Numbered from the stretch's first letter, positions 1-21,555 are shown. The stretch is DNA of 64,000 nucleotides from an uncultured Alphaproteobacteria bacterium (GCA_944389095.1 CALXLC010000010.1:22154-86153), one strand, 5' to 3'. The notes: generated by a model not told the origin, from the sequence alone. Numbers and translations are program-made.

Positions 1-1903
1 GGAACTCGTGCAGAGGAGGATCCAACAGACGGATAACCACCGGCAGACCTTCCATAATCTTAAACAGATCTTTGAAGTCCTGTTTCTGATAAGGCAGCAG
101 GCGAGCCAGAGCGGCGCGGCGGCCTTCTTCGTTTTCGGACAAAATCATGGCGCGCATATCCGGAATACGCTCTGCGTCAAAGAACATGTGTTCGGTACGG
201 GCCAAACCGATACCCTGAGCACCGAAATCACGAGCCTGTTGAGCGTCTTTCGGCGTTTCGGCGTTAGCACGAACTTCCATGGTGCGGATTTCGTCAACCC
301 AGCTCATCAGTTTTCCGAAATTGCCGGTGTTGGTGTCGGCCTTGACGGTCGGAACCTGACCTTCAATAATCTGGCCTTTGGCACCATCCAGAGAAACCCA
401 GTCGCCTTCTTTAACCACAACGCCTTTGTCGGTAGTCATGGTCTTTTTGGCATAGTCAATATGAATTTCATGAGAACCGGAAACACACGGCGTCCCCATA
501 CCGCGGGCAACAACCGCCGCGTGAGAGGTCATGCCGCCGCGAGCAGTAATAACACCCTGAGAGGCATGCATACCGCCGATATCTTCCGGAGAAGTCTCGT
601 TACGGATAAGGATAACTTTTTCGCCTCTGGCAGCCCAGGCTTCGGCATCTTCGGCATTGAAGACGGCACGGCCGACGGCAGCTCCCGGAGAAGCCGGCAG
701 ACCGGTTGCGATAACATTCTTTTTAGCCTTGGGATCCAGCATCGGATGCAGCAGCTGATCAAGCTGTTCGGCGCCGACGCGCATAATGGCTTCTTCTTTG
801 TTCAGCAGGCCTTCTTCAACCATTTCGACGGCCATGCGGACAGCGGCCTGAGCGGTACGTTTGCCGTTGCGGCACTGCAGCATCCACAGTTTTCCGTGTT
901 CAATGGTAAATTCCATATCCTGCATGTCTTTATAGTGCTGTTCCAGCTTGTTGCGGACATCAACCAGCTCTTTGTACAGGTGCGGCCATTTTTCTTCCAG
1001 AGAAGTACCGTCACCCTTGGAACCCATCGGTTGCGGCGTACGAATACCGGCCACAACATCTTCACCTTGAGCATTAACCAGATATTCGCCGTAATAAACG
1101 TTTTCGCCGGTGGCCGGGTCGCGGGAGAAGCAAACGCCCGTAGCGCAATCATCGCCGGCATTTCCGAAGACCATGGTCTGAACGTTAACGGCAGTACCCC
1201 AGTCGCCCGGAATATTGTTCAACTTACGATAGGTAATGGCGCGGTCGACCATCCAGGAACCGAACACGGCACCGATACCGGCCCACAACTGTTCCCACGG
1301 ATCCTGAGGAACGACTTTACCGATTTTCTGGCCGATTTCTTTGTATTCTTTAACCAATTCTTTAAGATCGTCGGCAGTCAGATCGGTGTCGGACTTATAT
1401 CCCTTGGACTTTTTCATATTTTCCAAAGCTTCTTCATAGAGGTCCAAATCGGCGCCCAAAACAACGTCGGAGAACATCTGCAGGAAGCGGCGATAAGAGT
1501 CATAAGCAAATCTTTCGCTGCCGGAAGCTTTCGCCAGAGCTTTGACTGTTTCGTCATTCAAACCGAGGTTCAAAACGGTATCCATCATACCCGGCATGGA
1601 AACGCGGGCGCCCGAACGGACGGAAAACAGCAGCGGATTGTTGGCATCGGCAAATTTTTTGCCCATGATTTTTTCAACGCTGGCAACGGCGGCTTTAACC
1701 TGGTCCTTCAAATCTGCAGGATAAGTCTTGTTATTATTGTAGTAATACGTGCAAACTTCGGTCGTAACCGTAAATCCGGGAGGCACCGGCAGACCAACCT
1801 TGTTCATTTCAGCCAGGTTGGCACCCTTGCCGCCAAGGAGATTACGCATGCTGGCGTCGCCTTCGGCTTGGCCGTTTCCAAATGTATAAACCCATTTACT
1901 CAT
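1..1903 (-). CDS. ppdK: pyruvate, phosphate dikinase, N-terminal ~634 aa (3' end lies beyond window start)
   Basis: Reverse translation begins MSKWVYTFGNGQAEGDASMRNLLGGKGANLAEMNKVGLPVPPGFTVTTE and continues through GGMTSHAAVVARGMG (phosphohistidine domain); GGAG RBS upstream of ATG at 1903; the 8..1936 plus-strand ORF is its antisense shadow. Confidence 0.9.
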   Translation of the reverse strand, partial: MSKWVYTFGNGQAEGDASMRNLLGGKGANLAEMNKVGLPVPPGFTVTTEVCTYYYNNNKTYPADLKDQVKAAVASVEKIMGKKFADANNPLLFSVRSGARVSMPGMMDTVLNLGLNDETVKALAKASGSERFAYDSYRRFLQMFSDVVLGADLDLYEEALENMKKSKGYKSDTDLTADDLKELVKEYKEIGQKIGKVVPQDPWEQLWAGIGAVFGSWMVDRAITYRKLNNIPGDWGTAVNVQTMVFGNAGDDCATGVCFSRDPATGENVYYGEYLVNAQGEDVVAGIRTPQPMGSKGDGTSLEEKWPHLYKELVDVRNKLEQHYKDMQDMEFTIEHGKLWMLQCRNGKRTAQAAVRMAVEMVEEGLLNKEEAIMRVGAEQLDQLLHPMLDPKAKKNVIATGLPASPGAAVGRAVFNAEDAEAWAARGEKVILIRNETSPEDIGGMHASQGVITARGGMTSHAAVVARGMGTPCVSGSHEIHIDYAKKTMTTDKGVVVKEGDWVSLDGAKGQIIEGQVPTVKADTNTGNFGKLMSWVDEIRTMEVRANAETPKDAQQARDFGAQGIGLARTEHMFFDAERIPDMRAMILSENEEGRRAALARLLPYQKQDFKDLFKIMEGLPVVIRLLDPPLHEF

Positions 1904-1943
1904 GGTGTTAATAGCTCCTTTGTAGCTTTTGGTTAAAACAAAA

Positions 1944-1975
1944 CCGGGCAGGCAGATTCCCCTGCCCGGCGAACT
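1944..1975. promoter_or_regulatory. 9-bp-stem hairpin (ccgggcagg...cctgcccgg) in the ppdK 5' leader, followed on the minus strand by a T-run
   Basis: Inverted repeat read directly; lies between ppdK start and the divergent lipoprotein gene; possible leader attenuator or orphan terminator. Confidence 0.25.
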
Positions 1976-2285
1976 TAATTCGGAGCTAAGTTATACCACC
2001 TTTTGCGATTCTACAAGGGAAAAGTTGCCTAAACCTTTAAATTTGGCTGATTTATGCACATTCGGTTACGGGTTTGGCAACATGCCGCGACTCCTTAACC
2101 AAACACATTTTTGTCGTTTTAGTCAAAACAAGGCTATTCGAGTCAACTGTTAAAATTAAGTTAAAAAGAATGAAAAAACAACCGGATTCACAAGTTTTGC
2201 TTGCCACCGCCCCGGTTTTGTGATATAAATATAATTGACACAAATTTTTATATTCTATTCTTATCCTCATTATTACCGAAGAAAT

Positions 2286-2353
2286 TGGGCGTTTTTGAAA
2301 ATTCATGAGACTAGCATGGCTTATGGTTCAAAAATCGTTCGGCATAATCAGGA
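2286..2353 (+). promoter_or_regulatory. Conserved upstream boxes (ttgggcgtttttga and caaaaatcgttcggcaNaatcagga) shared with the 6303..6371 copy
   Basis: Two sequence blocks with the same ~45-bp spacing recur upstream of both paralogous lipoprotein genes. Confidence 0.35.
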
Positions 2354-2453
2354 TGAATTTATATATTTAGCCGCTCGTATGACCTAACGTGGCATATTCC
2401 CGCAGCGGCATTGAGATCATTTTATTAGTTGTAAAAAATAAAAAAATATAATT

Positions 2454-5207
2454 ATGAAAGAATTTAGATTTTTCGCTGCTATGATCGCAGCTGTTATGTC
2501 GTTAATTTTTTCTGCAGTGATGACAAGCTGCAGCCCGGAAGACGATTTTAACATGTCCGGGAATTTGAACGGTAACGAACAACCGGTCACTCCCGTCGAC
2601 GCCGACTGGTACCTTAGCGATGCTATCCGTAAGGATTGCGTATTCGTTAAGGATTCGACCCACACCAATGAGCCGAATGATTCTGAAGTTTCAATCCTGA
2701 TGTCAGGACTGAAATATTTTGAATTAACAGTCGATGGACTGTTGTCTGACAAAAATAACGTGGAAGAAGGTCGTGATACGACATTCACCCGCGGCTACAA
2801 TGTCAAATTGGCGGCTACGGTTGCCAATTACAAAGTCGTTTTGATGGATGAAGGTATGACACTGCCGGATTCCGTTGAAATGAAAGACGGAATGTTCTCA
2901 GTATGCAATACTGAGATGCCGGTGACCATTCTCCCTGTTGACGACGTCAACCTGACCGTTAACTGCGGCCCGAAAGGAGAAAATCCGATTGAATTTTCAA
3001 CAAACACGGAAAATGCTGACTATCGCCTCGAAACAAGCAAAATTACACGCGCGTATATTTTGTTTGGTCACAAAGGCGCAGCCATGACCCGTGCAACAGT
3101 TGAAACTTCCAAGGATGCTGAAATCCACTTCGTCTGCGAAGACGGTTTGGATTTGGTGTATAGCTATACGGCTATCATCAGTACAACTTTGGAGGAAAAA
3201 GAAGTTATTACAACTGAGTTTATTGACTTAACCAGCGATGGTTACGTTAAGTACGACGTTGTAAGAACTAAATTGCCGGAAGGTACGGTAACCCGTTACC
3301 CTGGACAAGTTCCGGTAAATGCTGAATTAATTGCCCAGGCAATTGAAAGCAGCATCCAAACGACAGCCGGCATCAGCCTTACTTCTGCAGATGAACTCGA
3401 ATACACCAACGCTCGTAACTATCAATTCTCTTTCAACAAATTCAACTCACTGGTTAACGCATCTTACGTTAACTCTGTAGAAGTTGAGTTTGAGGGAAAG
3501 AACTACACTGTAGTTATCCCGGGCTCTGTATGGGTTGCATTCAGCGGTGCAAGCGAACCGACTGTTGATTCCAACAGCAACGAGAACTATACGTTGTACA
3601 CTTACACGTTAGGCTACAACCTGACATGGAAGAACAATGAAATCGCTCGCCCCTTCATGACCGCTACCACCTCTTTCACAGAGATGATTGAAAAGGTCAA
3701 CGACGAAGTGGAGGGCATCGACCTGACAATCAAAGAAAACGGTAACAATACCGTAACTTTGGAAGTCATCGAGCACCACACCGTCAATGGAGACGTTGTT
3801 GTTGCAACATGGACAGTTCCGGCAGGATTAAGCGTATCCTGCACGCCGGAATTCAATATAGAAGACGCCAACCTGATGCTCACTGGCGGTTCTGTTAGCA
3901 CTGTTGCTAATTGGACAAGCCAGGGAACAGAAAAGCTGAGCAACGAAGTTTCTGCAACCAAAATTGCAAAAACTTTCGCAGCAAGCTTCAACCATGGTGT
4001 TGACAGAGACGTTACCGTTTCCCAATACGAAACGTATACTGTTAACTACAACGGCGAAAGCTACTCAGCTTCTGTAAGCCGTGCAAACCTTGCACAGCCG
4101 GCTATCAAGCTGACGTCAGAAGTAGATAACAACGAAAAGTCTGAAAAGACTTGGACTGTTAGCTATTCTGCTTCTACAGAGAAGAACAGCGCCTCTGCAA
4201 CTCAGAAATGGGTTGTAACCAGCGAAAAGTCAAATGATATCGTTGACCGCCTTGTCGGCAATGAAGTCATTACTCTGGAGGGAAATAATTTCTTCCGTAA
4301 CGTAAACGTTACTCCGGTTTATTCTGTAACCGGCAAAGGTAATGCTTACACGGCAAAAATTAACACCAATTTCTCTGTAACCGACAACGGTACAATCGTT
4401 GTTTACGGAGACCTTGGCAATCTCTCATTAAGTAGCGAAAACACTGCTAACGTTTCTGCAATCAGAAACGACAGCATTGAAGGTTCCAGAACAAAGACAA
4501 CAGCCGTTTATTCTATCAATGACAAGTTCCCGTCTCTCTATATTGAGATTGACGGTGTGGCTAGTCTGTATGGAACACGTCTGATGACTTTGGTTCCGAC
4601 CACCAACGCTACAATAAATGCAACTGGTGAAAACTTCAAGGACGGTTTGTATACAGTTAATGTTTACAACATCGTCTATACCATTATTGTAGACGGTAAG
4701 AGTGTTAACCACACTCAGAGACTTGAGAACTATGTTCTTAATCTCGACAATACCATCTCTGGTCTTGAAGTTGATCCCAATAGAATTGGATCTTTTGCTC
4801 GGACAGAAGTTTATAACAATGCCCGCAGCACAAAGAGCCAAATTGACGCCGGAATCTTCCAGGAAATCGCTAACCCGTCAGTAAAGCACTTCGTTGCTTT
4901 TGACGTAGCCAGCGGCGCCGTTTTGGTTAACACCGTTGTTTCTGCAAGCGAACTTTCTGTTCTTGATTCCAAGAACGGTTATTGCTCTTTGCTGAAACTG
5001 GATAACCAAAAACCGGCTGTTCTCTATGGAAATCTGAGCGGCAATAACTACAAACAGGGCTTTGAATACAAAGCCCTTGCTGATGGCGAACTGAATACCT
5101 TCTCCGACGCTTCAATTACGTTGGAAAGATATTCTAACCCGTTGATTGACACCCTGGTTTCTCAAGGTGCTTACTATCAAATGGGTTCTGACACGATTTA
5201 CAAATAA
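2454..5207 (+). CDS. Large surface lipoprotein, paralog A (917 aa), one copy of the ~178-aa repeat module
   Basis: Signal peptide plus lipobox (AVMTSC); N-terminal ~420 aa and C-terminal ~330 aa collinear with the 6400..10218 protein; Asn/Thr/Ser-rich. Confidence 0.8.
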   Translation: MKEFRFFAAMIAAVMSLIFSAVMTSCSPEDDFNMSGNLNGNEQPVTPVDADWYLSDAIRKDCVFVKDSTHTNEPNDSEVSILMSGLKYFELTVDGLLSDKNNVEEGRDTTFTRGYNVKLAATVANYKVVLMDEGMTLPDSVEMKDGMFSVCNTEMPVTILPVDDVNLTVNCGPKGENPIEFSTNTENADYRLETSKITRAYILFGHKGAAMTRATVETSKDAEIHFVCEDGLDLVYSYTAIISTTLEEKEVITTEFIDLTSDGYVKYDVVRTKLPEGTVTRYPGQVPVNAELIAQAIESSIQTTAGISLTSADELEYTNARNYQFSFNKFNSLVNASYVNSVEVEFEGKNYTVVIPGSVWVAFSGASEPTVDSNSNENYTLYTYTLGYNLTWKNNEIARPFMTATTSFTEMIEKVNDEVEGIDLTIKENGNNTVTLEVIEHHTVNGDVVVATWTVPAGLSVSCTPEFNIEDANLMLTGGSVSTVANWTSQGTEKLSNEVSATKIAKTFAASFNHGVDRDVTVSQYETYTVNYNGESYSASVSRANLAQPAIKLTSEVDNNEKSEKTWTVSYSASTEKNSASATQKWVVTSEKSNDIVDRLVGNEVITLEGNNFFRNVNVTPVYSVTGKGNAYTAKINTNFSVTDNGTIVVYGDLGNLSLSSENTANVSAIRNDSIEGSRTKTTAVYSINDKFPSLYIEIDGVASLYGTRLMTLVPTTNATINATGENFKDGLYTVNVYNIVYTIIVDGKSVNHTQRLENYVLNLDNTISGLEVDPNRIGSFARTEVYNNARSTKSQIDAGIFQEIANPSVKHFVAFDVASGAVLVNTVVSASELSVLDSKNGYCSLLKLDNQKPAVLYGNLSGNNYKQGFEYKALADGELNTFSDASITLERYSNPLIDTLVSQGAYYQMGSDTIYK

Positions 5208-5355
5208 TCGCACACATAAATTCAAATCCTGACAGATGCCAAAGGATTTAAAACTATCGGGCATGTTTTAGTTAAAAAAAATTTTTCAAAACTCGCCGGG
5301 CTCGGAATATGAAACGTGTTTTCGTTTTCCCTGTTCGGCCTCAAAACCCAAAAAT

Positions 5356-6066
5356 ATGTTACGAAATATCATATTGGCAGTATTTATGCTTTTGGCTGCC
5401 GCAACTGCTACAAAAGCACAAGTCGTTATTAACACCGTTGCCGATACAACGGCTGTTAACAACGAAGTGGTAACCTCCAAAGAATCCACCAAGTGGATTC
5501 CAAAAGACGGGAACCATACGATGTACATAAGCCTCAGCGGGGCTTATGACAACGAATTTGAGGCTTTTGGTGGCAGCCTCGAATTAGGTTATTTCAACCA
5601 CCGAAATAAGGTCCCCTTCCGAGTATTTATAAAAGGGGATTATTACTCCGACGGCCGGGCGGCTTATGCTGCCGGTCTGGGTATCGGAATTATTCCGAAA
5701 GCCCAAAGTCGGATAAATCTCTGGTTGGACGCCTATGCAGGCTACACCGACCAGATTAAAGGTGTCACCATTGATCGCGAGATCAACGGAGACATCGAAG
5801 GCTGGCTCAAAGACAGCCCAAAAATCTTTGAAAAAGAATTCTACGCCGGCGCCCGCGTCGAGGTGGAATTCAAAGTAAGTAAAAAATTCTCAATCCTCGC
5901 AAGAGGTGGAATGGATTATTTACCCAGTAACGGCTCACAACTGGTATACGATGTGAGCGAGGATTTTTCCGGTAACATCGACGTTGACACAACGACGAAA
6001 AAGCTGGAGGAATCAATCAAGAAATTCTCTCTGAAAGGAGAGGTCGGTTTCCGGCTTTACTTCTAG
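5356..6066 (+). CDS. Small outer-membrane beta-barrel protein (OmpA-like/Omp25-type fold)
   Basis: Signal peptide ending AQ; alternating amphipathic strands; C-terminal GFRLYF aromatic terminus typical of OMP barrels. Confidence 0.7.
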   Translation: MLRNIILAVFMLLAAATATKAQVVINTVADTTAVNNEVVTSKESTKWIPKDGNHTMYISLSGAYDNEFEAFGGSLELGYFNHRNKVPFRVFIKGDYYSDGRAAYAAGLGIGIIPKAQSRINLWLDAYAGYTDQIKGVTIDREINGDIEGWLKDSPKIFEKEFYAGARVEVEFKVSKKFSILARGGMDYLPSNGSQLVYDVSEDFSGNIDVDTTTKKLEESIKKFSLKGEVGFRLYF

Positions 6067-6083
6067 TAAGGAGATTTCGGGGA

Positions 6084-6123
6084 AACAGCTGCTGACGCAA
6101 GTCGGCGGCTGTTTCTTTTTTTA
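6084..6123 (+). terminator. Rho-independent terminator after the OMP gene
   Basis: aaacagctgctgacgcaagtcggcggctgttt hairpin followed by an 8-T run. Confidence 0.6.
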
Positions 6124-6302
6124 GTCTTTGGAAACCCCGTCATCCCGCCACTTCTGCCGCATACAATCCCGCTGCGCCTGTTTTGTCAAAAGGCATGTTA
6201 AAATAATGTGACAAAATCATAATTTCAATACTTTTACATTGAAATTATAGCCATTTCGGACTATAATAATACTCGACAAAAATTATTTAACAAATTATGA
6301 TT

Positions 6303-6371
6303 TTGGGCGTTTTTGAGCGTGAAAGCTAACGTGTTATTTTCACCCCTCAAAAATCGTTCGGCAAATCAGGA
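6303..6371 (+). promoter_or_regulatory. Second copy of the conserved upstream boxes (see 2286..2353)
   Basis: ttgggcgtttttga and ctcaaaaatcgttcggcaaatcagga upstream of lipoprotein B. Confidence 0.35.
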
Positions 6372-6399
6372 AAATTATTAACTAAAAAACCATAACAGC

Positions 6400-9300
6400 A
6401 TGAAGAAAAAGAGTTTTTTCGCTGCTTTTGCAGCACTGTGTGTGATGATTTTGTCAGCCATAACGCTGACAGGCTGTTCCCCCGACGATGAATTCAATAT
6501 GTCGGGAAACCTGAACGGAAACGGAGAACCAACCCCGGATCCTGATTCCGAATGGTATCTGGACGATGTCTGGAAAAACCAATGCGTGTTTGTGCGGGAT
6601 TCAACCCACACCAACACCCCTAACGATTCGGAATCATCAATCGCCATGAGCGGTTTGAAGTATTTTGAACTGACCATCGGCGGAACCTTGGCGGACAGAA
6701 ACGAACTGGCATCTGTCCGGGATACCGGCTTTGTCCGCGGCTACAACGTAAATCTGGCGGCAACCGTTGCCAATTACAAAGTAGTCCTCAAGGACGAAGG
6801 ACAAAATCTCCCTGATTCGGTAGAGATGAAAGACGGCAAATTTACCGTCTGCAACTCTGAAATGCCGGTAACGATTTTGCCGGTGGAAGACGTTTCGCTG
6901 ACCGTCAACGGCGGTCCCGACGGACAAACCGAGTTTGTTTTCGGCACCGATAAAGCCGACGATTTCAAGCTGGAAAGCTCTGAAATCACCAGAGGATACA
7001 TCCTCTTTGGCAAGAAAGGCGCTCTGCAGACCCGGGCCGTTGTGGAAGAAACCACCATCCCGGCAGAAATCCATTTTGTCTGCAAAGACGGTTTGGATTT
7101 GATTTACGGCTATACGGCGGTAATTGCCACTTCGCTGGAAGAACGGGACGAAATTACCGCGGAATTCGTAGACATTACCGATGACGGCTATGTCAAATAC
7201 GAAATTACCCGCACCCACCTTCCCGACGGAACGGTAAACCGCTATCCGGGAATGATCCCCGTCAACGCCGAACTGACTGCTGCGGCAATTGAAAATCAGA
7301 TAAGCGAAAATCCGGGCATCAACTTGACTTCTGCCAGAGAGCGGGAGTACGCCGATGCCGGAGATTACAACTTTGTCTACAACAAGTTCAATTCAACCGT
7401 TAATGCCTCATACATTAATTCGGTAACAGTTGAATTTGAGGGCAATCCTTATCAGATTGAAATTCCCGGCGGTGTATGGGTTACTCAGGCCGGCATCAGC
7501 CAACCCGTGATTGATACCAAAAGCAATGACGATTACACGCTGTATACTTACACGCTGAATTATAACCTGACGTGGAAATACAACGAAATCGCCCGTCCTT
7601 TCAAATATGCCGAAACCACCTTTACGGAATTGGTAGAAAAAGAAAATGACGAAATTGCCGACACTCAGCTGATTCTGACCGAAAACGGCAACAACACCGT
7701 TAAGCTTGAACTGGTTGAGTATCACACCGTCAATCCGGATGTAACCTTAGGCACCTGGGTAGTCCCTGCAGGATTACGTCTCAGCTGTACCCCGGAATTT
7801 ACGATTGAAGACGCCAATCTGGCCCTGAGCGGCGGCGACATTTCGGCCTTGACCTCTTGGACCGCAAACGGTTCGGAACAAGTAACCGACAATGTGACGG
7901 CAACTCGTATCAGCCGGACTTACTCGGCAACCTTCAACCATGGAACGGACCGCGAAATAGAATTCTCTCAATACGAAACCTTTACGGTTTCTTATGAAAA
8001 CAGAACCTATTCCGCATCTGTTGACCGGGCTGCTTTGGAAAGACCGAATATCGAGCTGACCCGCGAGGTCGAGACAACCGAGCTGAGTCAAAAGATTTGG
8101 ACGGTAACTTATACCGCTCAGACCGCAGTCAACGAAGTTGACGCAACTCAGATTTGGACAATCACCCAAAACAAAACGGAAGATACCGGAAACATTGAGC
8201 TGACCGCTCAGGAAAGCGCAAACAATACCGTAACGCTGACCCTGACGGAATATCATACAACCGGAGAAAACACCGTTTTGGGAACCTGGGTTGTCCCCAA
8301 CGGCTTGACCCTGACCTGCACACCTGAGTTCAGCCGTGAAAACGCCGACCAAAGTCTGACCGGCGGAGACCTGAGCACCGTATCGGATTGGAGGGAATCA
8401 ACCACCGAAAGAATTACCGACAACGTAAAGGCCACCCGGATACACAAAACCTATTCGGCAGCCTTTAATCAGGGAACCGACCGCAACATCTCCCTTTCAC
8501 AATACGAAACCTACATTGTAACTTATAATAATGTAGATTATTCGGCATCTGTGAGCCGTGCGGAGATGAATCAAACCGAAATCAGCCTGAGCAGAGAAAG
8601 CGATACTTCGGAAAGATCCGAAACAATCTGGAATGTTGTTTACAGTGCGCACACCGTAAGCAACAGCACCAATGCTTCGCAAATCTGGACGATTTATCAA
8701 AACAAGGAACAGGACGAAGTTGAAAAAATCGAGCTGAGCATTCAGGAAAACGGCAACAACACCGTTACCCTGAACCTGACTGAGTATCATACGCTCAACA
8801 ACGACGTCTTGCTGGTATCTCAAACCGTTCCGGCCGGATTAAGCGTATCCTGCACGCCGGAATTCAACATTGAGAATGACAACACCAGCCTCACCGGAGG
8901 TTCCGTCAGCACCGTCTCGGACTGGAGCAGTCAGGGAACCCGGAATCTGGGAAATAATGTAACGGCAACCCAAATTGCCAAAACATTCTCAGCCGCATTC
9001 AACCATGGAACGGACCGCAATATTACGGTATCTCAGTATGAAAGATTTACGCTGACATACCAAAACACCGAATATTCGGCTTCTGTTATCCGTGCCACTC
9101 TTGACAATGCGGTCATCGGTCAGCCGAGCATTGTAGACAATGCCCAAATGACTCAGAGGAGCTATCCCGTCAGCTACACGGCAAAAACAGCACGAAACAG
9201 CGCAAGCGGTAACCAAACATGGGTTATCACCAGCGAAAAGCCCGATAACATCGTCGACTACCTTGTCGGCAGTGAAGTTATCACTCTCGAAGGAAATCAA

Positions 9301-10218
9301 TATTTCCGCAATGTGAGCGTGACCCCGGTATATTCCGTCTCCGGCAACGGCAGGCCTTATACCGCCAAAATAAACACGCAGTTCACTGTTTCTGACAACG
9401 GAACCATTGTTGTCACCGGAGAAATGGGAAATCTCTCACTGACCCGTGAAACAACTTCAAACATTTCCGCTATCAGAAATGACAGCGTAACCGGCAACCG
9501 GACCAGAACCACATCTGTTTACGCCATCGGCGGCCAAAACCCGATACTCTACACGGAGATTGACGGAGTAGCTGCTCTGCATGGAAAACAGCTGATGACG
9601 CTGGTTCCGGCAACTTCAGCGGTTATTGAAAACACCGGAGAAACTTATCAGGACGGATTATACACCGTGACGGTATACAACATTGTTTATACCATTACCG
9701 TGGACGGCAAGAGCGTTAACCATACGCAAAGACTTGAGAACCGTGTTCTCAATGCTGAGCCGACCATTCCCGGACTGGAAGTTGATCCTGACCGGATTGG
9801 CTCATTTGCCCGCACGGAAGTTTACAACAACGCCCGCAGCATAAAGAGCCAGATTGACGCCGGAATCTTCCGTGAAATAGACAACCCGTCCGTAAAGCAC
9901 TTCGTTGCTTTTGACGTAGCCAGCGGCGCCGTTTTGGTTAACACCGTTGTTTCTGCAAGCGAACTTTCTGTTCTTGATTCCAAGAACGGTTATTGCTCTT
10001 TGTTGAAACTGGATAACCAGCAGCCTGCCGTTCTTTACGGAAATCTGAGCGGCAATAACTACAAACAGGGCTTCGAATACAAAGCCCTCGCAAGTGGTGA
10101 ATTAAATACCTTCTCCGACGCCTCAATTACGTTGGAAAGGTATTCTAACCCCTTGATTAACACCCTGGTTTCCAGAGGCGGTTATTATCAAATGGGTTCG
10201 GACACCATTTACAAATAA
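6400..10218 (+). CDS. Large surface lipoprotein, paralog B (1272 aa), three tandem copies of the ~178-aa repeat module
   Basis: Signal peptide plus lipobox (ITLTGC); N- and C-terminal regions homologous to paralog A; last ~130 codons nearly identical at DNA level to 4820..5207. Confidence 0.8.
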   Translation: MKKKSFFAAFAALCVMILSAITLTGCSPDDEFNMSGNLNGNGEPTPDPDSEWYLDDVWKNQCVFVRDSTHTNTPNDSESSIAMSGLKYFELTIGGTLADRNELASVRDTGFVRGYNVNLAATVANYKVVLKDEGQNLPDSVEMKDGKFTVCNSEMPVTILPVEDVSLTVNGGPDGQTEFVFGTDKADDFKLESSEITRGYILFGKKGALQTRAVVEETTIPAEIHFVCKDGLDLIYGYTAVIATSLEERDEITAEFVDITDDGYVKYEITRTHLPDGTVNRYPGMIPVNAELTAAAIENQISENPGINLTSAREREYADAGDYNFVYNKFNSTVNASYINSVTVEFEGNPYQIEIPGGVWVTQAGISQPVIDTKSNDDYTLYTYTLNYNLTWKYNEIARPFKYAETTFTELVEKENDEIADTQLILTENGNNTVKLELVEYHTVNPDVTLGTWVVPAGLRLSCTPEFTIEDANLALSGGDISALTSWTANGSEQVTDNVTATRISRTYSATFNHGTDREIEFSQYETFTVSYENRTYSASVDRAALERPNIELTREVETTELSQKIWTVTYTAQTAVNEVDATQIWTITQNKTEDTGNIELTAQESANNTVTLTLTEYHTTGENTVLGTWVVPNGLTLTCTPEFSRENADQSLTGGDLSTVSDWRESTTERITDNVKATRIHKTYSAAFNQGTDRNISLSQYETYIVTYNNVDYSASVSRAEMNQTEISLSRESDTSERSETIWNVVYSAHTVSNSTNASQIWTIYQNKEQDEVEKIELSIQENGNNTVTLNLTEYHTLNNDVLLVSQTVPAGLSVSCTPEFNIENDNTSLTGGSVSTVSDWSSQGTRNLGNNVTATQIAKTFSAAFNHGTDRNITVSQYERFTLTYQNTEYSASVIRATLDNAVIGQPSIVDNAQMTQRSYPVSYTAKTARNSASGNQTWVITSEKPDNIVDYLVGSEVITLEGNQYFRNVSVTPVYSVSGNGRPYTAKINTQFTVSDNGTIVVTGEMGNLSLTRETTSNISAIRNDSVTGNRTRTTSVYAIGGQNPILYTEIDGVAALHGKQLMTLVPATSAVIENTGETYQDGLYTVTVYNIVYTITVDGKSVNHTQRLENRVLNAEPTIPGLEVDPDRIGSFARTEVYNNARSIKSQIDAGIFREIDNPSVKHFVAFDVASGAVLVNTVVSASELSVLDSKNGYCSLLKLDNQQPAVLYGNLSGNNYKQGFEYKALASGELNTFSDASITLERYSNPLINTLVSRGGYYQMGSDTIYK
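7672..9270 (+). repeat. Intragenic tandem repeat, 3 x ~534 bp (each ~178 aa: NNTVtLxLxEYHT...TPEF...ATrI.kT.SAaFNhGTDR...SQYET...YSASV)
   Basis: Three successive protein segments of lipoprotein B align with each other and with the single module at ~3735..4270 of paralog A; 38-nt identical stretch (ccggcaggattaagcgtatcctgcacgccggaattcaa) at 3820 and 8822. Confidence 0.7.
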
Positions 10219-10244
10219 TCCTGAATTGCCGTATCCCTTCAGAA

Positions 10245-10287
10245 GAAACAGCCGCCGGATTTTCCGGCCGCTGTTTCTTTTTTTTTA
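10245..10287 (+). terminator. Rho-independent terminator after lipoprotein B
   Basis: gaaacagccgccggattttccggccgctgtttc hairpin plus 10-T run; same aaacagc...gctgttt stem motif as the 6084 terminator. Confidence 0.65.
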
Positions 10288-10388
10288 AATTCCGCGTTAT
10301 CCACATATCTCCCGCCATTTGCAAAATAAATAAAATTTTAAAATAATAACTATATACTGTCTGCAAACATGGATTAAGGAGAAACAAA

Positions 10389-11117
10389 ATGAAATGGTAT
10401 CACATTCTGGCCGTCTGTTGTTTTGCTGTTGCCGCCTCAACGACACAAGCTCAGGAAACGCCGCGGCTTCCCGCCGCCGAAGAAAACCAGAAATGGCAGC
10501 CCAATCCGGAATATAACACCATTTTGGAAGAAATTTCTTCCGCCGTCGGACAAAGCGCCGTCGCCAATATTACCGGCGCCGAACAGGTTTTTTGCTACCA
10601 GATAACCAACCGTCCCGAAAACTACACCGGATACACGCTTGACGGCATGGCCATCGTCGGTTTTTGCGGGATTATCAACGCCGAGCTCAAAACCATGATT
10701 ACCTCCGAACTTTTCATGAATCCCGAAAACATTTTGTTTGACGTTACCGAAGAATGCGTCATCCGTCCGCAGATTATGCTGCGTTTTGTCCGCGGCGTGG
10801 ATGCCACCGATGTCCTGCTGTCATCGCCCTGCCATGCCTTTGCCATCTTTTACGGCGGACAAGTCAACGCCTTCAACGCCAAACCGGCCGCACCGATTAT
10901 TGACGCGCTGGTCGAACCGTTGATTAAAGGCAAGGTCGACTTTGCCTCTCCGGCGCTGTTCAACCAATTGCTGCCAATCGGCGTTGCGCAGACAGAAGAA
11001 CAAAAAGCCCTGCTCAACAAAAAAAACGAACCCATTCGCAACTGGATTAAAACCCAAAAGGAAGAAGAAGCAGCCTCTGCCAAACGCGGCTGGAACAACA
11101 TTAACCTGAAATTATAG
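10389..11117 (+). CDS. Secreted hypothetical protein (242 aa)
   Basis: N-terminal signal peptide (AVAASTTQAQE), no recognisable catalytic motifs. Confidence 0.5.
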   Translation: MKWYHILAVCCFAVAASTTQAQETPRLPAAEENQKWQPNPEYNTILEEISSAVGQSAVANITGAEQVFCYQITNRPENYTGYTLDGMAIVGFCGIINAELKTMITSELFMNPENILFDVTEECVIRPQIMLRFVRGVDATDVLLSSPCHAFAIFYGGQVNAFNAKPAAPIIDALVEPLIKGKVDFASPALFNQLLPIGVAQTEEQKALLNKKNEPIRNWIKTQKEEEAASAKRGWNNINLKL

Positions 11118-16995: not shown

Positions 16996-17601
16996 TTAGA
17001 ACGTAAAGCGAAGACCGCCGTAATATTCGTGAGCATTGACATTGGCTTTTTCGATATCGCCCATATCAACATAACGATAACCGGCATCAAGATTCAAACA
17101 TCTGTTCAGACGCAGGGACAAACCGCCGCCCAAACTCCAGGTAAAGTTGTCGGAAGAATATGTATAAGTTCTAGAATCTGTATTAGTCACATCCAGACGC
17201 GTCCAGCCGATACCGCCGCTGACATACGGACTGATCCAGTAATTGGGCATAAAATCAATATAAGCATTGGCCATAAAGCTGTCAGACTCCAAAACAGAGT
17301 GGCGTTTTCCCTCTATTGGCCCCGAACCTGCCGGATAAGTATCATCCGAGTCATCGCGATAAACATATTCCGCTTCAATCCGGAAATAAGAATAGCGATA
17401 ACCGATGGCACCGGACATCATCCAGACATCGCCGAAATCAGCGCGGGAAGAAACCGCCGCCGAATCATTTTTGTCATTCAGATTGTAACTGTCCATACCG
17501 CCGCGGACAGCCAGATAAAAACCGTCGCGAGCCGAAGCCGTGGACGCGGCTGCCATAGACAAAACCAAAGCAGAAGCCAAGGTAACCATTGATTTTTTCA
17601 T
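16996..17601 (-). CDS. Small outer-membrane beta-barrel protein (OmpA-like/Omp25-type)
   Basis: MKKSMVTLASALVLSMAAASTASA signal peptide, beta-strand pattern, C-terminal GLRFTF. Confidence 0.7.
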   Translation of the reverse strand: MKKSMVTLASALVLSMAAASTASARDGFYLAVRGGMDSYNLNDKNDSAAVSSRADFGDVWMMSGAIGYRYSYFRIEAEYVYRDDSDDTYPAGSGPIEGKRHSVLESDSFMANAYIDFMPNYWISPYVSGGIGWTRLDVTNTDSRTYTYSSDNFTWSLGGGLSLRLNRCLNLDAGYRYVDMGDIEKANVNAHEYYGGLRFTF

Positions 17602-17744
17602 GATAGTCTCCATAAAGTTTTCCGTAAAATTTGTCCAACTATACAACTAAACTCAAAATTAATCAAGCGAAAAATGCATCAATTTTATTTTTTATTTGCC
17701 CAGACTGTAGCATGGCTTCGTTATTATTTTGTTAATAGCGCAAA

Positions 17745-17799: not shown

Positions 17800-20700
17800 T
17801 TACCAGGGATCGTCATATCCCAGAGCCGGATCGTTCAACCGGTCACGATAAGACGAATCTCCGGAATTGTACCCGGCACCGCCGGTACTCCGTCCGGTTT
17901 TGGCATACCCCGAACGGAAATTGGCAATCTGGTCATACCCGGTATCAACCAGGTCGCTTTTCCACGACCAGTCGGGGTTAGACATGACGCGCCGTTCAAA
18001 ATAGCAGTAAACATTTGAGATTGCGGTCATTTCCTCGTTATAAACCGGAAACAGGTTCCACACGATTTTTCCGCGCAGACTGTTGGCCGTCGCGCTTCCC
18101 GCCACGTCGGTCAGGTAATCCTGATAATCGGAGCCGTGATACAAAAAGCCCATAATCGCATGCCAGCCCAAAAAGTCGCTGTTGCGGATGGTTCCCATAT
18201 TTCCGCTTGTGGAAGACGTCGAATTGTCACGCACGCCGCTGATGGTCGTGTTCAGCCAGGTATTGGTCTGGAAAGTCATCGGCATACCTTGTTCAAACTC
18301 ATGCGTATGCACACCCGAAGATCCGTCCGCCTCGGCAATAATCAAACGACCGGACGCCGGATCGCGGGGAGCCACAAAATAACTCTTAAACCGCTGAGCG
18401 ACTTCGGTTTCCGGAATTCCCGTCGGCGGCATGGCCACATAATAAGCTTCCGCCATTTTCCAGCGAATGGGATTAATGGTAATAACTTTGGAATAGCCCG
18501 GCGGACATTGGGGAGTCGGCACAAAACCGAGCCACGGCGTCGTAATACAGTCCATATCGCCGTTGCAGTCGCTTGGCTGATTTTCCACAACAATTGAATT
18601 TCCGCTCTGCCGAACCGTATAATCCTCCCAGCTGCGGCTGCCGCTGGTCGGCTCCTCATAAGTATTATCAATAACATAAATACCTTTATTGATAAAGTCG
18701 GGCAAAATATCGCTCAAACGCGCGCCGCCGCGGGTAGTCAGCTTAATATCGTGCATAACCGAGGTATATGCGGGATTAACCTGATAAGCGTCATACGGCT
18801 TAGTCGCGCCGGCCTCACGTTCATTGGCATCCGGTCCCGGAAATTCATAAGCCTGATTGGCCAGCAGCCGGTCTGCTTTAATATAGCCCGGAACATCCTG
18901 CTCACCTTTGTCGGCCTCCAAATCAGAACGATCCGACGTTCCGCCCGCCGGCAGCGAAATCATTCCTTCGCGCCGGATAAGCACGCCGTCATCCAACACG
19001 GTATTGGTAAAAGCTCCCGTACTGTCCGTCACGGACTTGTTGCGGGCATCATTGGCAAAAAGCATTTTGTCTTCGTCAATCACGATATTGTCGGAAACCG
19101 CCTTAATCAGCGTCGCGTCCATTTCAATATTTCCGGTTGTCATTTCCAAACTGGCCGTACTGCCGCCGCCGGCGCCGTAGCTATGCTCCAACAACAGGCT
19201 ATCTTGATTAACGTAAATCGAATTCGGATTCTCTGCACCGGTATTACGAATGGCAATTTGATTGCTTTTTAAATCAACGGTCTGCTTTCCGCCGTTGGCA
19301 CTCAGCCCGATTTCAGTACCGGTAATTTCCGCGCCGCCGGAATCCAACTCCACCTTGCCGCCGAGATCACCGCCGCCTTGTGCCGTCAAAACACCGGAAG
19401 ACAAAGCATCTAACGTTGAATCGGTCACTTTGACCCCGTTGGCGTCATCCAATTTAACAAACGCACCGCTGGCATCCGTACCGACCACCGCGCTTCCCAC
19501 ATACAATTTGGCTTCCGTATCGGAAATCGACAGTCTGTCACCCACCTGCATATTGTTAACGGCAATGTCGACGCTGGAATTATCGGCCAAAAAGTTATAA
19601 GTCCCGTCAGCCATCCGGCCACCGCCCAAAATACCGCGTGCGTAAATATTTTCGGCATCAAAATCACCGCCGATGCTCAAATCATTTTTAATATAAGCGT
19701 TATTCTCTACCAAAAGGCTGCCGTCCGAAGAGTTTGACTGCCCCACAACCAGACTGTAGTTATTGGTATCTCCCGAAAAACCGGAGGCGCCGCTGATTGT
19801 GCCGCCCTTGACATTGACGCCGGAGCTGATTTCAGCACCGCCTTCAACCGTCAGCTTGCCGCTGCCGTCATCGCCTTTTTTAATCTCGGTATCGCCGGTA
19901 ATTGTCGTCTTGCCCGTAATTGAGCTGTCTCCCGTCACGTCAATACCGCCTTCGGTAACCGTAACCTTACCGGCTGCCTTGATTTTATCCGTATCGTTAA
20001 CCAGCAGCAGGCTGTCGGCAATATTGGCGCTGCCTGCCGTCAGCAGATTCGAAATCGTTGCCGCGCCTTCCACGACCAGATTGGCCTCTTTTTGGGTTTC
20101 CCCTTCATCGGCACCGGTAATCAAAACCTCGCCGCTGTCGCTGTCGGCAATCAGGCGGTGAACCTCGCCGATGGAATTACCGCCCATATACAGATTAACC
20201 TGCATGGTGTTGTATTCAACATCGCCCATACTGTCATCACGAAACAAAACATGCTCCGTTCCGGCGCCGGAACTCGCGTTAACCGCATGAATGGAACTCG
20301 AGGCAATACTGCCGTTGGGAGCCGTCCCCAAATCATAGTCACCCAATGCGGCGGCCCATCCGCCCTGCACGCCGTTGGCAACATTATCTTCCACAATGGC
20401 GCCGTTGGCCCCAATCATGGATGCGATTTTGGAAGAACGGACAATCGACAAATCGTTTTTTATCGGCGCCAGCACCAACCCCGTTATCGACGCGTGTTCC
20501 TGAGGCGTACCCTCGTCAACCACACTTTTCTTATACGCCATCTTAAAAGCGGAAAACAATTTTGATTCGTCCAGATTAAACCCGTACGGCAGATACGGCT
20601 CAATATCTTCGGGCAAAACCTCCTGAATATCCGGACTGCCCGACATCGTAAAATCAACGTAATTATCCTTGATGTAGTCATCCAGAGCCTTTGACAGAGT

Positions 20701-20862
20701 ACGCATTTGCGCCGCGGCATTAATATCCTGCAGCTCGGTGGTCCTCTCCGCGGCCTTTTTATACAACACCGGCGTCACCATGGTTATCAGCCCGAGCATG
20801 GCCAGAGCCTCCACCATCATGCTGCCCTTCTGGGCCGATTTGTAATTAAAACGTTTCAACAT
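17800..20862 (-). CDS. Giant (1020 aa) TadE/TadG-like pseudopilin-like protein with Gly-rich repeats
   Basis: N-terminus KGSMMVEALAMLGLITMVTPVLY matches the TadE/prepilin leader (G then hydrophobic stretch with Glu at +5); remainder Gly/Ser/Asn/Asp-rich repetitive; GAGGAG RBS. Confidence 0.6.
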   Translation of the reverse strand: MLKRFNYKSAQKGSMMVEALAMLGLITMVTPVLYKKAAERTTELQDINAAAQMRTLSKALDDYIKDNYVDFTMSGSPDIQEVLPEDIEPYLPYGFNLDESKLFSAFKMAYKKSVVDEGTPQEHASITGLVLAPIKNDLSIVRSSKIASMIGANGAIVEDNVANGVQGGWAAALGDYDLGTAPNGSIASSSIHAVNASSGAGTEHVLFRDDSMGDVEYNTMQVNLYMGGNSIGEVHRLIADSDSGEVLITGADEGETQKEANLVVEGAATISNLLTAGSANIADSLLLVNDTDKIKAAGKVTVTEGGIDVTGDSSITGKTTITGDTEIKKGDDGSGKLTVEGGAEISSGVNVKGGTISGASGFSGDTNNYSLVVGQSNSSDGSLLVENNAYIKNDLSIGGDFDAENIYARGILGGGRMADGTYNFLADNSSVDIAVNNMQVGDRLSISDTEAKLYVGSAVVGTDASGAFVKLDDANGVKVTDSTLDALSSGVLTAQGGGDLGGKVELDSGGAEITGTEIGLSANGGKQTVDLKSNQIAIRNTGAENPNSIYVNQDSLLLEHSYGAGGGSTASLEMTTGNIEMDATLIKAVSDNIVIDEDKMLFANDARNKSVTDSTGAFTNTVLDDGVLIRREGMISLPAGGTSDRSDLEADKGEQDVPGYIKADRLLANQAYEFPGPDANEREAGATKPYDAYQVNPAYTSVMHDIKLTTRGGARLSDILPDFINKGIYVIDNTYEEPTSGSRSWEDYTVRQSGNSIVVENQPSDCNGDMDCITTPWLGFVPTPQCPPGYSKVITINPIRWKMAEAYYVAMPPTGIPETEVAQRFKSYFVAPRDPASGRLIIAEADGSSGVHTHEFEQGMPMTFQTNTWLNTTISGVRDNSTSSTSGNMGTIRNSDFLGWHAIMGFLYHGSDYQDYLTDVAGSATANSLRGKIVWNLFPVYNEEMTAISNVYCYFERRVMSNPDWSWKSDLVDTGYDQIANFRSGYAKTGRSTGGAGYNSGDSSYRDRLNDPALGYDDPW

Positions 20863-20886: not shown

Positions 20887-21555
20887 CTACACCGACGAAA
20901 GATAAACCAAACACACCCAGCCCTTGCTCAAATCGCAGACTTCCTTAAACGTTGCGTCTTCCACCACTGCCGAAGGCACATAAATATCCGCCCGGTCACG
21001 GTCAATAATCCTCACGGACGAACCCGATATGTTTTTGTCCGTACTGGTTCCGGCCAAAACCGGCGCCGTATATCCGAACATTGTCCCGCCTTCAACCGTA
21101 TTGCGGAGGGCATTCATAAAATCAACATTCGGCTCCTCCAGCTCCGTCGCCTGATTAATCCAGCGAGTCGGTATCACGCCGTAGGTCACAAGCATTTTTT
21201 TGTTTTTTCTGACGCTGCATTGCGCCTGTTCTCCGTAACTGACGGTCATATCCTCGTTCATGCAGAAAATCTGACTGATATAAGCCGGATCGTTATAATG
21301 TCCGAACGCAATATACGGATCCAAATCCTCATCCGCAATAACGCCGGGACTGTACTCCACATTTGGAGGATTGCTGACATAAGGCTTTTTGCGGTATTTC
21401 ACATAATCGCGGGCCGCTTTGTGCTTGGTAACCAGTTTTTCCACCGCGGCCTCGGCCAAAGGCTCGACCGTAATCTGCCGGATGTCTGCCCGCGGCGAAA
21501 GCGTATATGACGCCAGCACGGCCAGAAATGTTGCCAAAATCACCCAAATATACAT
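20887..21555 (-). CDS. Membrane-anchored hypothetical protein (222 aa) co-oriented with the giant pseudopilin-like gene
   Basis: Single N-terminal TM (MYIWVILATFLAVLASY), 25-nt gap to the downstream gene. Confidence 0.5.
   Translation of the reverse strand: MYIWVILATFLAVLASYTLSPRADIRQITVEPLAEAAVEKLVTKHKAARDYVKYRKKPYVSNPPNVEYSPGVIADEDLDPYIAFGHYNDPAYISQIFCMNEDMTVSYGEQAQCSVRKNKKMLVTYGVIPTRWINQATELEEPNVDFMNALRNTVEGGTMFGYTAPVLAGTSTDKNISGSSVRIIDRDRADIYVPSAVVEDATFKEVCDLSKGWVCLVYLSSV

Follow-up and report, generated by a model that had tools for sequence, protein, structure and literature searches.

The 64,000-nucleotide stretch of DNA described here (the window; GCA_944389095.1, CALXLC010000010.1:22154-86153) comes from an uncultured Alphaproteobacteria bacterium and carries two genes for large lipoproteins, A and B, that enclose a gene for a small protein resembling an outer membrane protein (OMP). 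On balance, we interpret this locus as a clade-specific, probably surface-exposed lipoprotein/OMP cassette whose diversity comes from allelic recombination and not from programmed variation of its repeats. A and the OMP gene differ more between strains than their surroundings do, the alleles of A are mosaics, and the 3′ ends of A and B show concerted evolution. The genome of the window (W) was compared with strain and relative genomes labelled L005, L006, L007, L010-L014, L016 and L018. The features of the cassette are given below in nucleotides (nt) of the window and, for the proteins, in amino acids (aa); ORF stands for open reading frame.

2235-2453 (+), promoter and leader region of A; predicted leader hairpin at 2285-2344, its stem formed by two sequence boxes (box 1 and box 2)
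2454-5207 (+), gene A, lipoprotein of 917 aa (ORF translation, BLASTP)
A, aa 1-26 (+), signal peptide and lipobox, Cys26 (sequence)
A, aa 27-49 (+), acidic, disordered tether (AlphaFold2 model)
A, aa 50-248, nt 2601-3197 (+), N-domain (AlphaFold2 model, BLASTP)
A, aa 249-413, nt 3198-3692 (+), module 1 (hhalign)
A, aa 414-595, nt 3693-4238 (+), module 2, the overt repeat (BLASTP, hhalign)
A, aa 596-765, nt 4239-4748 (+), module 3 (hhalign)
A, aa 766-917, nt 4749-5204 (+), C-terminal alpha/beta domain (AlphaFold2 model)
4725-5204 (+), 3′ gene-conversion tract of A, with its partner in B at 9736-10215
5356-6066 (+), gene for the small OMP-like protein, 236 aa (ORF translation, relatives, beta-signal)
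6079-6124 (+), intrinsic terminator of the A-OMP unit, an 18-bp stem followed by a T-run
6239-6399 (+), promoter (6239-6267) and leader of B, with a predicted leader hairpin at 6303-6363
6400-10218 (+), gene B, lipoprotein of 1272 aa (ORF translation, BLASTP)
B, aa 1-26 (+), signal peptide and lipobox, followed by the tether and the N-domain (aa 50-248)
B, aa 249-413, nt 7144-7638 (+), module 1
B, aa 414-590, 591-768 and 769-950, nt 7639-8169, 8170-8703 and 8704-9249 (+), three overt modules
B, aa 951-1120, nt 9250-9759 (+), last module
B, aa 1121-1272, nt 9760-10215 (+), C-terminal domain
10243-10288 (+), intrinsic terminator of B, with 17-nt arms (94% complementary) followed by a T-run

Divergence, mosaic alleles and gene conversion

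Between W and L011, the lipoprotein and its partner OMP are 25% and 22% identical, respectively, whereas every neighboring gene retains 47-95% identity (PPDK, 95%; AtpB, 88%; PDT, 84%; FliP, 84%; a 242-aa protein encoded next to the cassette, 79%; an Opacity-type OMP and DsbA, 68% each). The same block stands out between W and L005, where the synonymous divergence (dS) of A and the OMP gene reaches 0.60 and 0.65, respectively, against 0.23 for B and 0.10-0.28 for the flanking genes; the synonymous divergence of A and the OMP gene between strains is about three times the background. Sliding identity places the beginning of the divergent block at the start codon of A and its end past the OMP gene. 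The ratio of nonsynonymous to synonymous divergence (dN/dS) is ~0.15 for W versus L005, compared with 0.02-0.04 in housekeeping genes, so that purifying selection acts on these genes, although more weakly than on housekeeping genes.

Across its genome, strain L006 matches the window at 98-100% identity, yet in its copy of A the identity falls to 66-84% at nt 2401-3200. With 92.5% identity, this segment is of the L005 allele class, and the presence of an L005-class segment in a window-like genome marks the A alleles as mosaics that result from inter-strain recombination.

Within a genome, A and B show concerted evolution over their final 240-480 nt, indicating gene conversion. The longest exact run shared by the two genes measures 111 nt (4881-4991 and 9892-10002), and identical codons are used at 0.75-0.91 of the conserved residues in the last ~130 codons, as opposed to about 0.45 elsewhere. 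Over the last 390 nt, A and B of the same strain are 89.7-94.9% identical, which exceeds the identity between orthologs of divergent strains (82-85%); a control region upstream has the reverse pattern. Quartet site patterns for W and L005 agree, with 25 concerted and 0 orthologous sites in the last 240 nt and 0 concerted and 96 orthologous sites upstream of position -480. The comparison of W with L007 adds one further concerted tract.

In B, identity between W and L005 dips at 7601-7800 and 8001-8200 (85-87%, versus 94-98% around them). The dips fall into overt modules one and two, and import or conversion of short tracts may be their source.

Two modular lipoproteins

Both A and B start with a signal peptide and a lipobox, which reads ...AVMTS-C26 in A and ...TLTG-C26 in B (MKEFRFFAAMIAAVMSLIFSAVMTS-C26 and MKKKSFFAAFAALCVMILSAITLTG-C26, respectively). 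These N-termini match the bacterial lipoprotein definition of PROSITE PS51257 for substrates of Lgt and LspA, i.e. a basic n-region and a hydrophobic core followed by [LVIM..][ASTG..][GAS]-C. BLASTP aligns the N-terminal 595 aa of the two proteins at 61% identity and A 414-917 with B 769-1272 at 74%, rising to 92-98% over the final ~130 aa. A preliminary description of the locus had reported two lipoproteins of 917 and 1272 aa around an OMP gene, with N- and C-terminal domains in common and a difference in repeat copy number, and all of this holds.

The overt repeat is a module of 177-178 aa, of which A has one copy and B has three; the copies are 47-60% identical in protein sequence. It is flanked by cryptic copies: the segments 249-413, 414-595 and 596-765 of A are homologous (hhalign probability of 98% for modules 1 and 2, and of 92% for modules 2 and 3), which brings the total number of modules to three in A and five in B. 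An AlphaFold2 model of A, built from a 24-sequence family alignment, has a mean pLDDT (predicted local distance difference test) of 81. In this model, residues 1-49 are disordered and are followed by a chain of all-beta domains and then by a mixed alpha/beta domain (766-917), for which the best fold match is the PepSY-like protein YpmB. For the full-length model, the top Foldseek match in the Protein Data Bank (PDB) is the S-layer protein Sap of B. anthracis (E 8e-6, probability 0.44, template modeling (TM) score <0.1). We did not adopt this match, nor the cadherin matches, as a fold assignment: these are generic multi-domain beta proteins with TM scores <0.1. The fold searches returned no matches to SusD, TbpB or other binding proteins.

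In amino acids, the tether of A in the window strain (aa 27-44, nt 2532-2585; SPEDDFNMSGNLNGN) equals that of B, while other A alleles read FLMEGELEG or FLMEGALQG at this position. We considered a recent B-to-A conversion at this 5′ site and do not claim it, because many synonymous sites differ between the two genes; the likeness (FNMSGNLNGN) is the product of an old exchange or of convergence.

Constant module number

Repeat-number variation and chimeric A/B alleles had been predicted for this locus, with the conserved flanks as recombination substrates. In the independent assemblies compared, full-length B measures 1272 aa in seven of seven variants and A measures 912-917 aa in seven of seven; these lengths come from eight consensus assemblies, and heterogeneity inside one population lies outside their reach. 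N-terminal chimeras of A and B were searched for and none were found, so neither prediction was borne out. The proposal of the flanks as substrates survives in part, for the 3′ gene conversion and the mosaic alleles, and fails for the modules, between which no exact match exceeds 22 nt. The modules are old duplications.

A protein of 1047 aa, P0011, was examined as a length variant of B and rejected as a chimera of assembly: its sequence is collinear to that of B as far as residue ~986, and the C-terminus beyond that point is HAD-like and unrelated. The hallmarks of programmed switching were also sought. The genes contain no tandem DNA repeats or simple-sequence tracts (Tandem Repeats Finder), no inverted repeats suited to an invertible promoter occur around 1900-6500, and tblastn and blastn detected no silent donor copies of A, B or the OMP gene in the remaining 54 kb of the window.

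A small protein family at a conserved site

Neither Pfam nor NCBIfam gave a match above threshold for A, B, the OMP, the 242-aa protein or any of 24 family members, and sequence profile searches of the PDB with the lipoprotein and OMP families gave no match. A word-indexed search of 5.8 billion proteins returned six clusters only, all of the window species, and a word-index search with the family alignment retrieved the same six close clusters. An exhaustive HMMER search of 1.84 billion representative proteins yielded 21 matches, which are 18-29% identical to A and carry no Pfam domain; a profile search with the OMP found family members only. The earlier statement that no homolog family is recognizable is therefore correct for Pfam, NCBIfam and the PDB, and has to be amended by this small, unannotated family found by HMMER. 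Topic searches of the literature gave no description of it. The protein family is new to databases, although the kind of locus, a fast-evolving surface-protein locus with conversion between paralogs, is familiar.

All full-length distant relatives have a lipobox cysteine followed by an acid-rich stretch (e.g. C-SPEDD, C-SPDDE, C-SDDEE and C-SEEES), with a mean of 2.25 D/E residues at positions +2 to +6 in 20 members counted by hand. Proteobacterial genes surround the family in all eight contexts examined: atp operons with b and b′ (atpF/atpF′) and the genes for DciA, FliP, a Tim44-like protein and SecB. Bacteroidota homologs were absent among the HMMER matches, and none of the eight contexts was from Bacteroidota. 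This points to one clade of proteobacteria, most likely alphaproteobacterial.

Pairing of the two gene types is conserved as well: nearly all of the distant relatives have a homologous small OMP as neighbor, in related genomes mostly at ppdK. A homologous OMP gene of 216-253 aa lies directly 3′ of a lipoprotein gene in seven lineages (W, L010, L011, L012, L013, L014 and L016), and a hidden Markov model (HMM) of the OMP alignment scores the neighbors in L014 and L016 at E 3e-21 and 5e-47. The cassette adjoins ppdK in W, L011, L012, L013, L014 and L018, and in W, L011, L012, L013 and L014 the lipoprotein gene is divergent from ppdK. In L011 and L014, the OMP gene is followed by the conserved 242-aa gene, pheA and the atp operon. 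The window order of lipoprotein, OMP and lipoprotein genes recurs in L013, and L016 keeps the lipoprotein-OMP pair at another site.

The OMP-like protein

The small protein between A and B has features of a small barrel, namely a Sec signal peptide (ending ...TKAQ), amphipathic strands (seven segments with a period of two) and an aromatic C-terminal beta-signal (...VGFRLYF). Its match to PF13505 (OMP_b-brl) scores 13.3 bits (E 0.096), below the gathering threshold of 28.7 bits, and the best of its seven OMP relatives (E 0.0074) is still below threshold. An hhalign comparison with the genuine Opacity-type OMP of the window gave a probability of 32% only. We infer, with good support from these sequence features, that the protein is an OMP, which is not an assignment to a family. 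Following its signal peptide, it has an N-terminal extension of ~30 aa (aa 22-55, nt 5419-5520; VVINTVADTTAVNNEVV...) that is absent in other lineages, and among strains its length varies between 236 and 239 aa through small indels.

Leaders, terminators and translation starts

The upstream sequence boxes that had been noted as common to A and B are indeed exact in both copies: box 1 (TTGGGCGTTTTTGA) lies at 2285-2298 and 6303-6316, and box 2 (TCAAAAATCGTTCGGCA) lies at 2328-2344 and 6347-6363, the latter being unique otherwise in the window even when three mismatches are allowed. In both leaders, the two boxes pair as the basal stem of a predicted hairpin of ~60 nt, whose apical parts differ and yet pair as well (free energy -19.4 kcal/mol and z -2.0 for A; -22 kcal/mol and z -2.4 for B). 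Among all strains, conservation of the 81-82-nt leader elements is 100% at A and almost complete at B. For A, 81 nt are identical across strains although the adjoining coding sequence is 15-34% diverged, and overall these elements stay constant beside coding sequence with a dS of 0.6-1.1. Rfam had no match for the leader regions, and the hairpin motif is absent upstream of the lipoprotein genes of distant species, i.e. the element is species-specific. We therefore describe it as a candidate species-specific cis-regulatory RNA element, which might stabilize the mRNA or serve as a common regulatory target.

B has a sigma-70-like promoter (TTGAAA-17-TATAAT, 6239-6267) that matches the consensus at 11 of 12 positions and would give B a leader of 125 nt. 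A single terminator design (GAAACAGC...GCTGTTTCTTTTT) is found at the OMP gene (6082-6120) and at B (10245-10282) only; it had previously been ascribed to A as well, which has no terminator of its own. Because the 148-nt gap between A and the OMP gene is free of terminators, these two genes probably form one operon, with B as a separate unit.

The cassette genes are also unusual in their translation starts. A Shine-Dalgarno (SD) motif is missing from all 17 family genes (for lipoproteins and OMPs, from eight lineages), whereas 26 of 57 neighboring genes have one (Fisher p = 3e-4; window, L007, L010-L014, L016 and L018). The 20 nt upstream of the family starts contain 52% A and 6% G (2434-2453, 5336-5355 and 6380-6399 in the window). 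Bacteroidota genes are typically SD-less with A-rich initiation regions, as are the cassette genes, which resemble either this style of initiation or the S1-dependent initiation of highly expressed genes.

Comparison with known systems

LigA and LigB of Leptospira, two paralogous surface lipoproteins of giant size, contain tandem Ig-like Big_2 domains. With A and B, they have in common two large paralogs of tandem beta modules, an unequal number of modules and one long, near-identical region. That region is the C-terminal 130 aa in A and B, however, and the N-terminal half in the Lig proteins. In addition, the cassette lacks Big_2 or any other Pfam domain, has a small OMP gene between the paralogs, and comes from a proteobacterium instead of a spirochaete. 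More generally, neither a Pfam Big-type domain nor a clear Ig-like fold match of the kind expected for Ig-like adhesins (Big_1/2/3, invasin/intimin, Lig) was found.

Surface lipoproteins of Neisseria and relatives, such as TbpB, LbpB, fHbp and HpuA, are substrates of Slam (type XI) translocons. As in the cassette, the surface-lipoprotein gene adjoins a gene for a dedicated outer membrane barrel, and allelic diversity and mosaicism are strong. Slam is a ~480-aa DUF560 barrel with tetratricopeptide repeats, whereas the cassette partner is of the small-barrel class (~210 aa when mature). The adjacent 236-aa protein has no match to PF04575 (DUF560), and the lipoproteins lack the C-terminal 8-stranded beta-barrel domain that is typical of Slam substrates.

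The lipoprotein export signal (LES) of Bacteroidota is K-(D/E)2 or Q-A-(D/E)2 just after Cys+1 (PMC5080379). Every family member similarly has an acid-rich stretch after the cysteine, combined with a tether and beta-rich domains. A and B, with S-P-E-D-D and S-P-D-D-E, deviate from the exact LES consensus, and the uniformly proteobacterial contexts set the family apart from LES lipoproteins, which are encoded in Bacteroidota genomes with a dedicated export pathway.

In size, signal peptide, aromatic beta-signal, weak PF13505 similarity and rapid divergence, the small protein resembles the Omp25/Omp31/Opacity-type OMPs (PF13505, PF02462) and the Msp2/P28 proteins of Anaplasma and Ehrlichia (PF01617). 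Unlike those proteins, it is strictly paired with a giant lipoprotein, and all matches of the cassette OMPs are below the gathering score. Finally, the cassette differs from the vls/vmp, msp2, pilE/pilS and Mycoplasma vlp/vsa systems in having no silent cassettes (in the 64 kb), number-changing repeats or invertible promoter.

Proposed model and alternative explanations

In the interpretation that we favor, A would be an elongated, all-beta modular lipoprotein, anchored in the outer membrane and encoded in one operon with a cognate small beta-barrel-type OMP; B would be a second, separately transcribed paralog, present in the window species, with two extra modules. The N-terminal lipid and the acidic, disordered tether would hold the lipoprotein in the outer membrane, from where a stalk consisting of the N-domain and three (A) or five (B) modules of ~170 aa would project from the cell, with the conserved alpha/beta C-terminal domain at its tip. 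Both lipoproteins are probably handled by the OMP, as an anchor, docking or export partner, and because they have the leader hairpin in common and a single OMP as partner, they are probably co-regulated. The cassette occupies a fixed site between ppdK on one side and the 242-aa gene, pheA and the atp operon on the other. There, allelic replacement by homologous recombination generates diversity, and short conversion tracts prevent the C-terminal domains of the two paralogs in a genome from drifting apart. Phage or host immunity could exert the diversifying pressure, and A and B may act as antigens or adhesins. If A and B are indeed surface-exposed, they would represent a clade-specific major surface structure that domain databases have missed entirely, and a surface locus that varies by allelic replacement at a fixed site while conversion matches one domain of two paralogs. 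In practice, the A/OMP allele classes could be used as strain markers in metagenomes, and the family could enter domain databases.

Several points weigh against this interpretation. Most studied proteobacterial lipoproteins face the periplasm, an overall signal of positive selection is lacking (dN/dS ~0.15), and relaxed constraint together with recombination could be the source of much of the divergence. The OMP label draws on sub-threshold Pfam matches, the signal peptide, the beta-signal and amphipathic periodicity, and one distant family member (P0037 in L018) adjoins ppdK without a neighboring OMP gene. Some of these points would suit a periplasm-facing complex of an outer membrane lipoprotein and an OMP that has a structural or envelope-maintenance role and evolves fast through relaxed constraint. 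We regard such a complex as unlikely, with a real minority chance of being correct. Periplasmic orientation is the default of proteobacterial outer membrane lipoproteins, and the best fold match of the C-terminal domain, YpmB, and the selection ratio are consistent with it. In the same genomes, however, DsbA, the Opacity-type OMP and the 242-aa secreted protein are 68-79% identical while the cassette is at 22-25%; high dS and mosaic alleles in near-identical backgrounds fit a maintained allelic diversity that is typical of exposed structures, and five to seven beta domains (917-1272 aa) on a flexible tether would be long for the periplasm. The same signals that could drive very high expression (the strong B promoter, strong terminators of both units, the conserved hairpin and the A-rich, SD-less starts), together with the Sap match, would be compatible with an abundant coat or S-layer-like protein pair that is not an adhesin. 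This is improbable: the Sap match is generic to multi-beta-sandwich proteins, and lipid-anchored S-layers are unusual.

Conserved pairing of lipoprotein and barrel genes could also reflect ligand or nutrient capture of the TbpB/TbpA or SusD/SusC type, in which the lipoprotein binds a substrate and hands it to the barrel. Known surface receptor lipoproteins share the acidic, tethered N-terminus (PMC5080379). Such a function is nonetheless quite improbable here, given a mature barrel of ~210 aa without a TonB-dependent receptor or plug domain or any Pfam match above threshold, neighbors (ppdK, pheA, atp) that include no TonB, ABC transporter or catabolic genes, and the lack of fold matches to binding proteins. 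The reading we consider least probable is programmed antigenic or adhesive variation, whereby members of one population would often change in repeat number or acquire chimeric alleles, through recombination among modules or between A and B. In its favor, the two genes form direct repeats whose 3′ ends match exactly over 111 nt, conversion between these ends is demonstrable, and the window-strain tether of A equals that of B. Yet the conversion homogenizes the 3′ ends instead of diversifying them, the tether differs at too many synonymous sites for a recent exchange, and the modules (47-60% identical, ≤22 nt exact) offer little for recombination. Likewise, the copy number is invariant in seven B and seven A variants, the eight consensus assemblies point to a single structure, and the tandem repeats, simple-sequence tracts, promoter inverted repeats and silent copies (in the remaining 54 kb) are missing.

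A more speculative extension of the surface-exposed cassette, to which we give a small chance, is an unrecognized proteobacterial system of lipoprotein display. Here, a dedicated small barrel unrelated to Slam would serve giant lipoproteins with an acidic export signal similar to that of Bacteroidota, either exporting or anchoring them, and the PepSY-like C-terminal domain would dock onto the barrel. Such docking would account for two patterns of the C-terminal domain, which conversion holds identical in the A and B of any one genome and which diverges together with the OMP allele from strain to strain. The combination of barrel pairing, an acidic motif after the cysteine and SD-less leaders raises the possibility of such a new display route.

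Neighboring genes and further observations

Directly 3′ of the cassette, at 10389-11117 (+), lies the gene for the 242-aa secreted protein, which has no Pfam family and also occurs in L014; with this conserved gene, the variable region reaches its right border. On the other side, some assemblies call an 84-aa ORF (2052-2306, -) that overlaps the promoter region of A and looks spurious. Its place is taken in L011 (8700-9605, -) and L010 (211-1101, -) by a gene of ~300 aa (36% mutual identity) that does not occur in the window.

Farther downstream, a 1020-aa ORF without a Pfam domain (17800-20862, -) lies next to a 222-aa ORF (20887-21555, -) and the Opacity/PF13505 OMP (16996-17646, -). We tried the 1020-aa ORF as a relative of A and B and rejected it (hhalign probability of 0.1%). 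The 1020/222 ORF pair is on the opposite strand compared with the arrangement in L011, which may reflect an inversion. Lastly, the OMP cluster of the L011-type species (P0039) comprises 249 member sequences; this relative, which could be a source of many alleles for population analysis, therefore appears to be common in public metagenomes.

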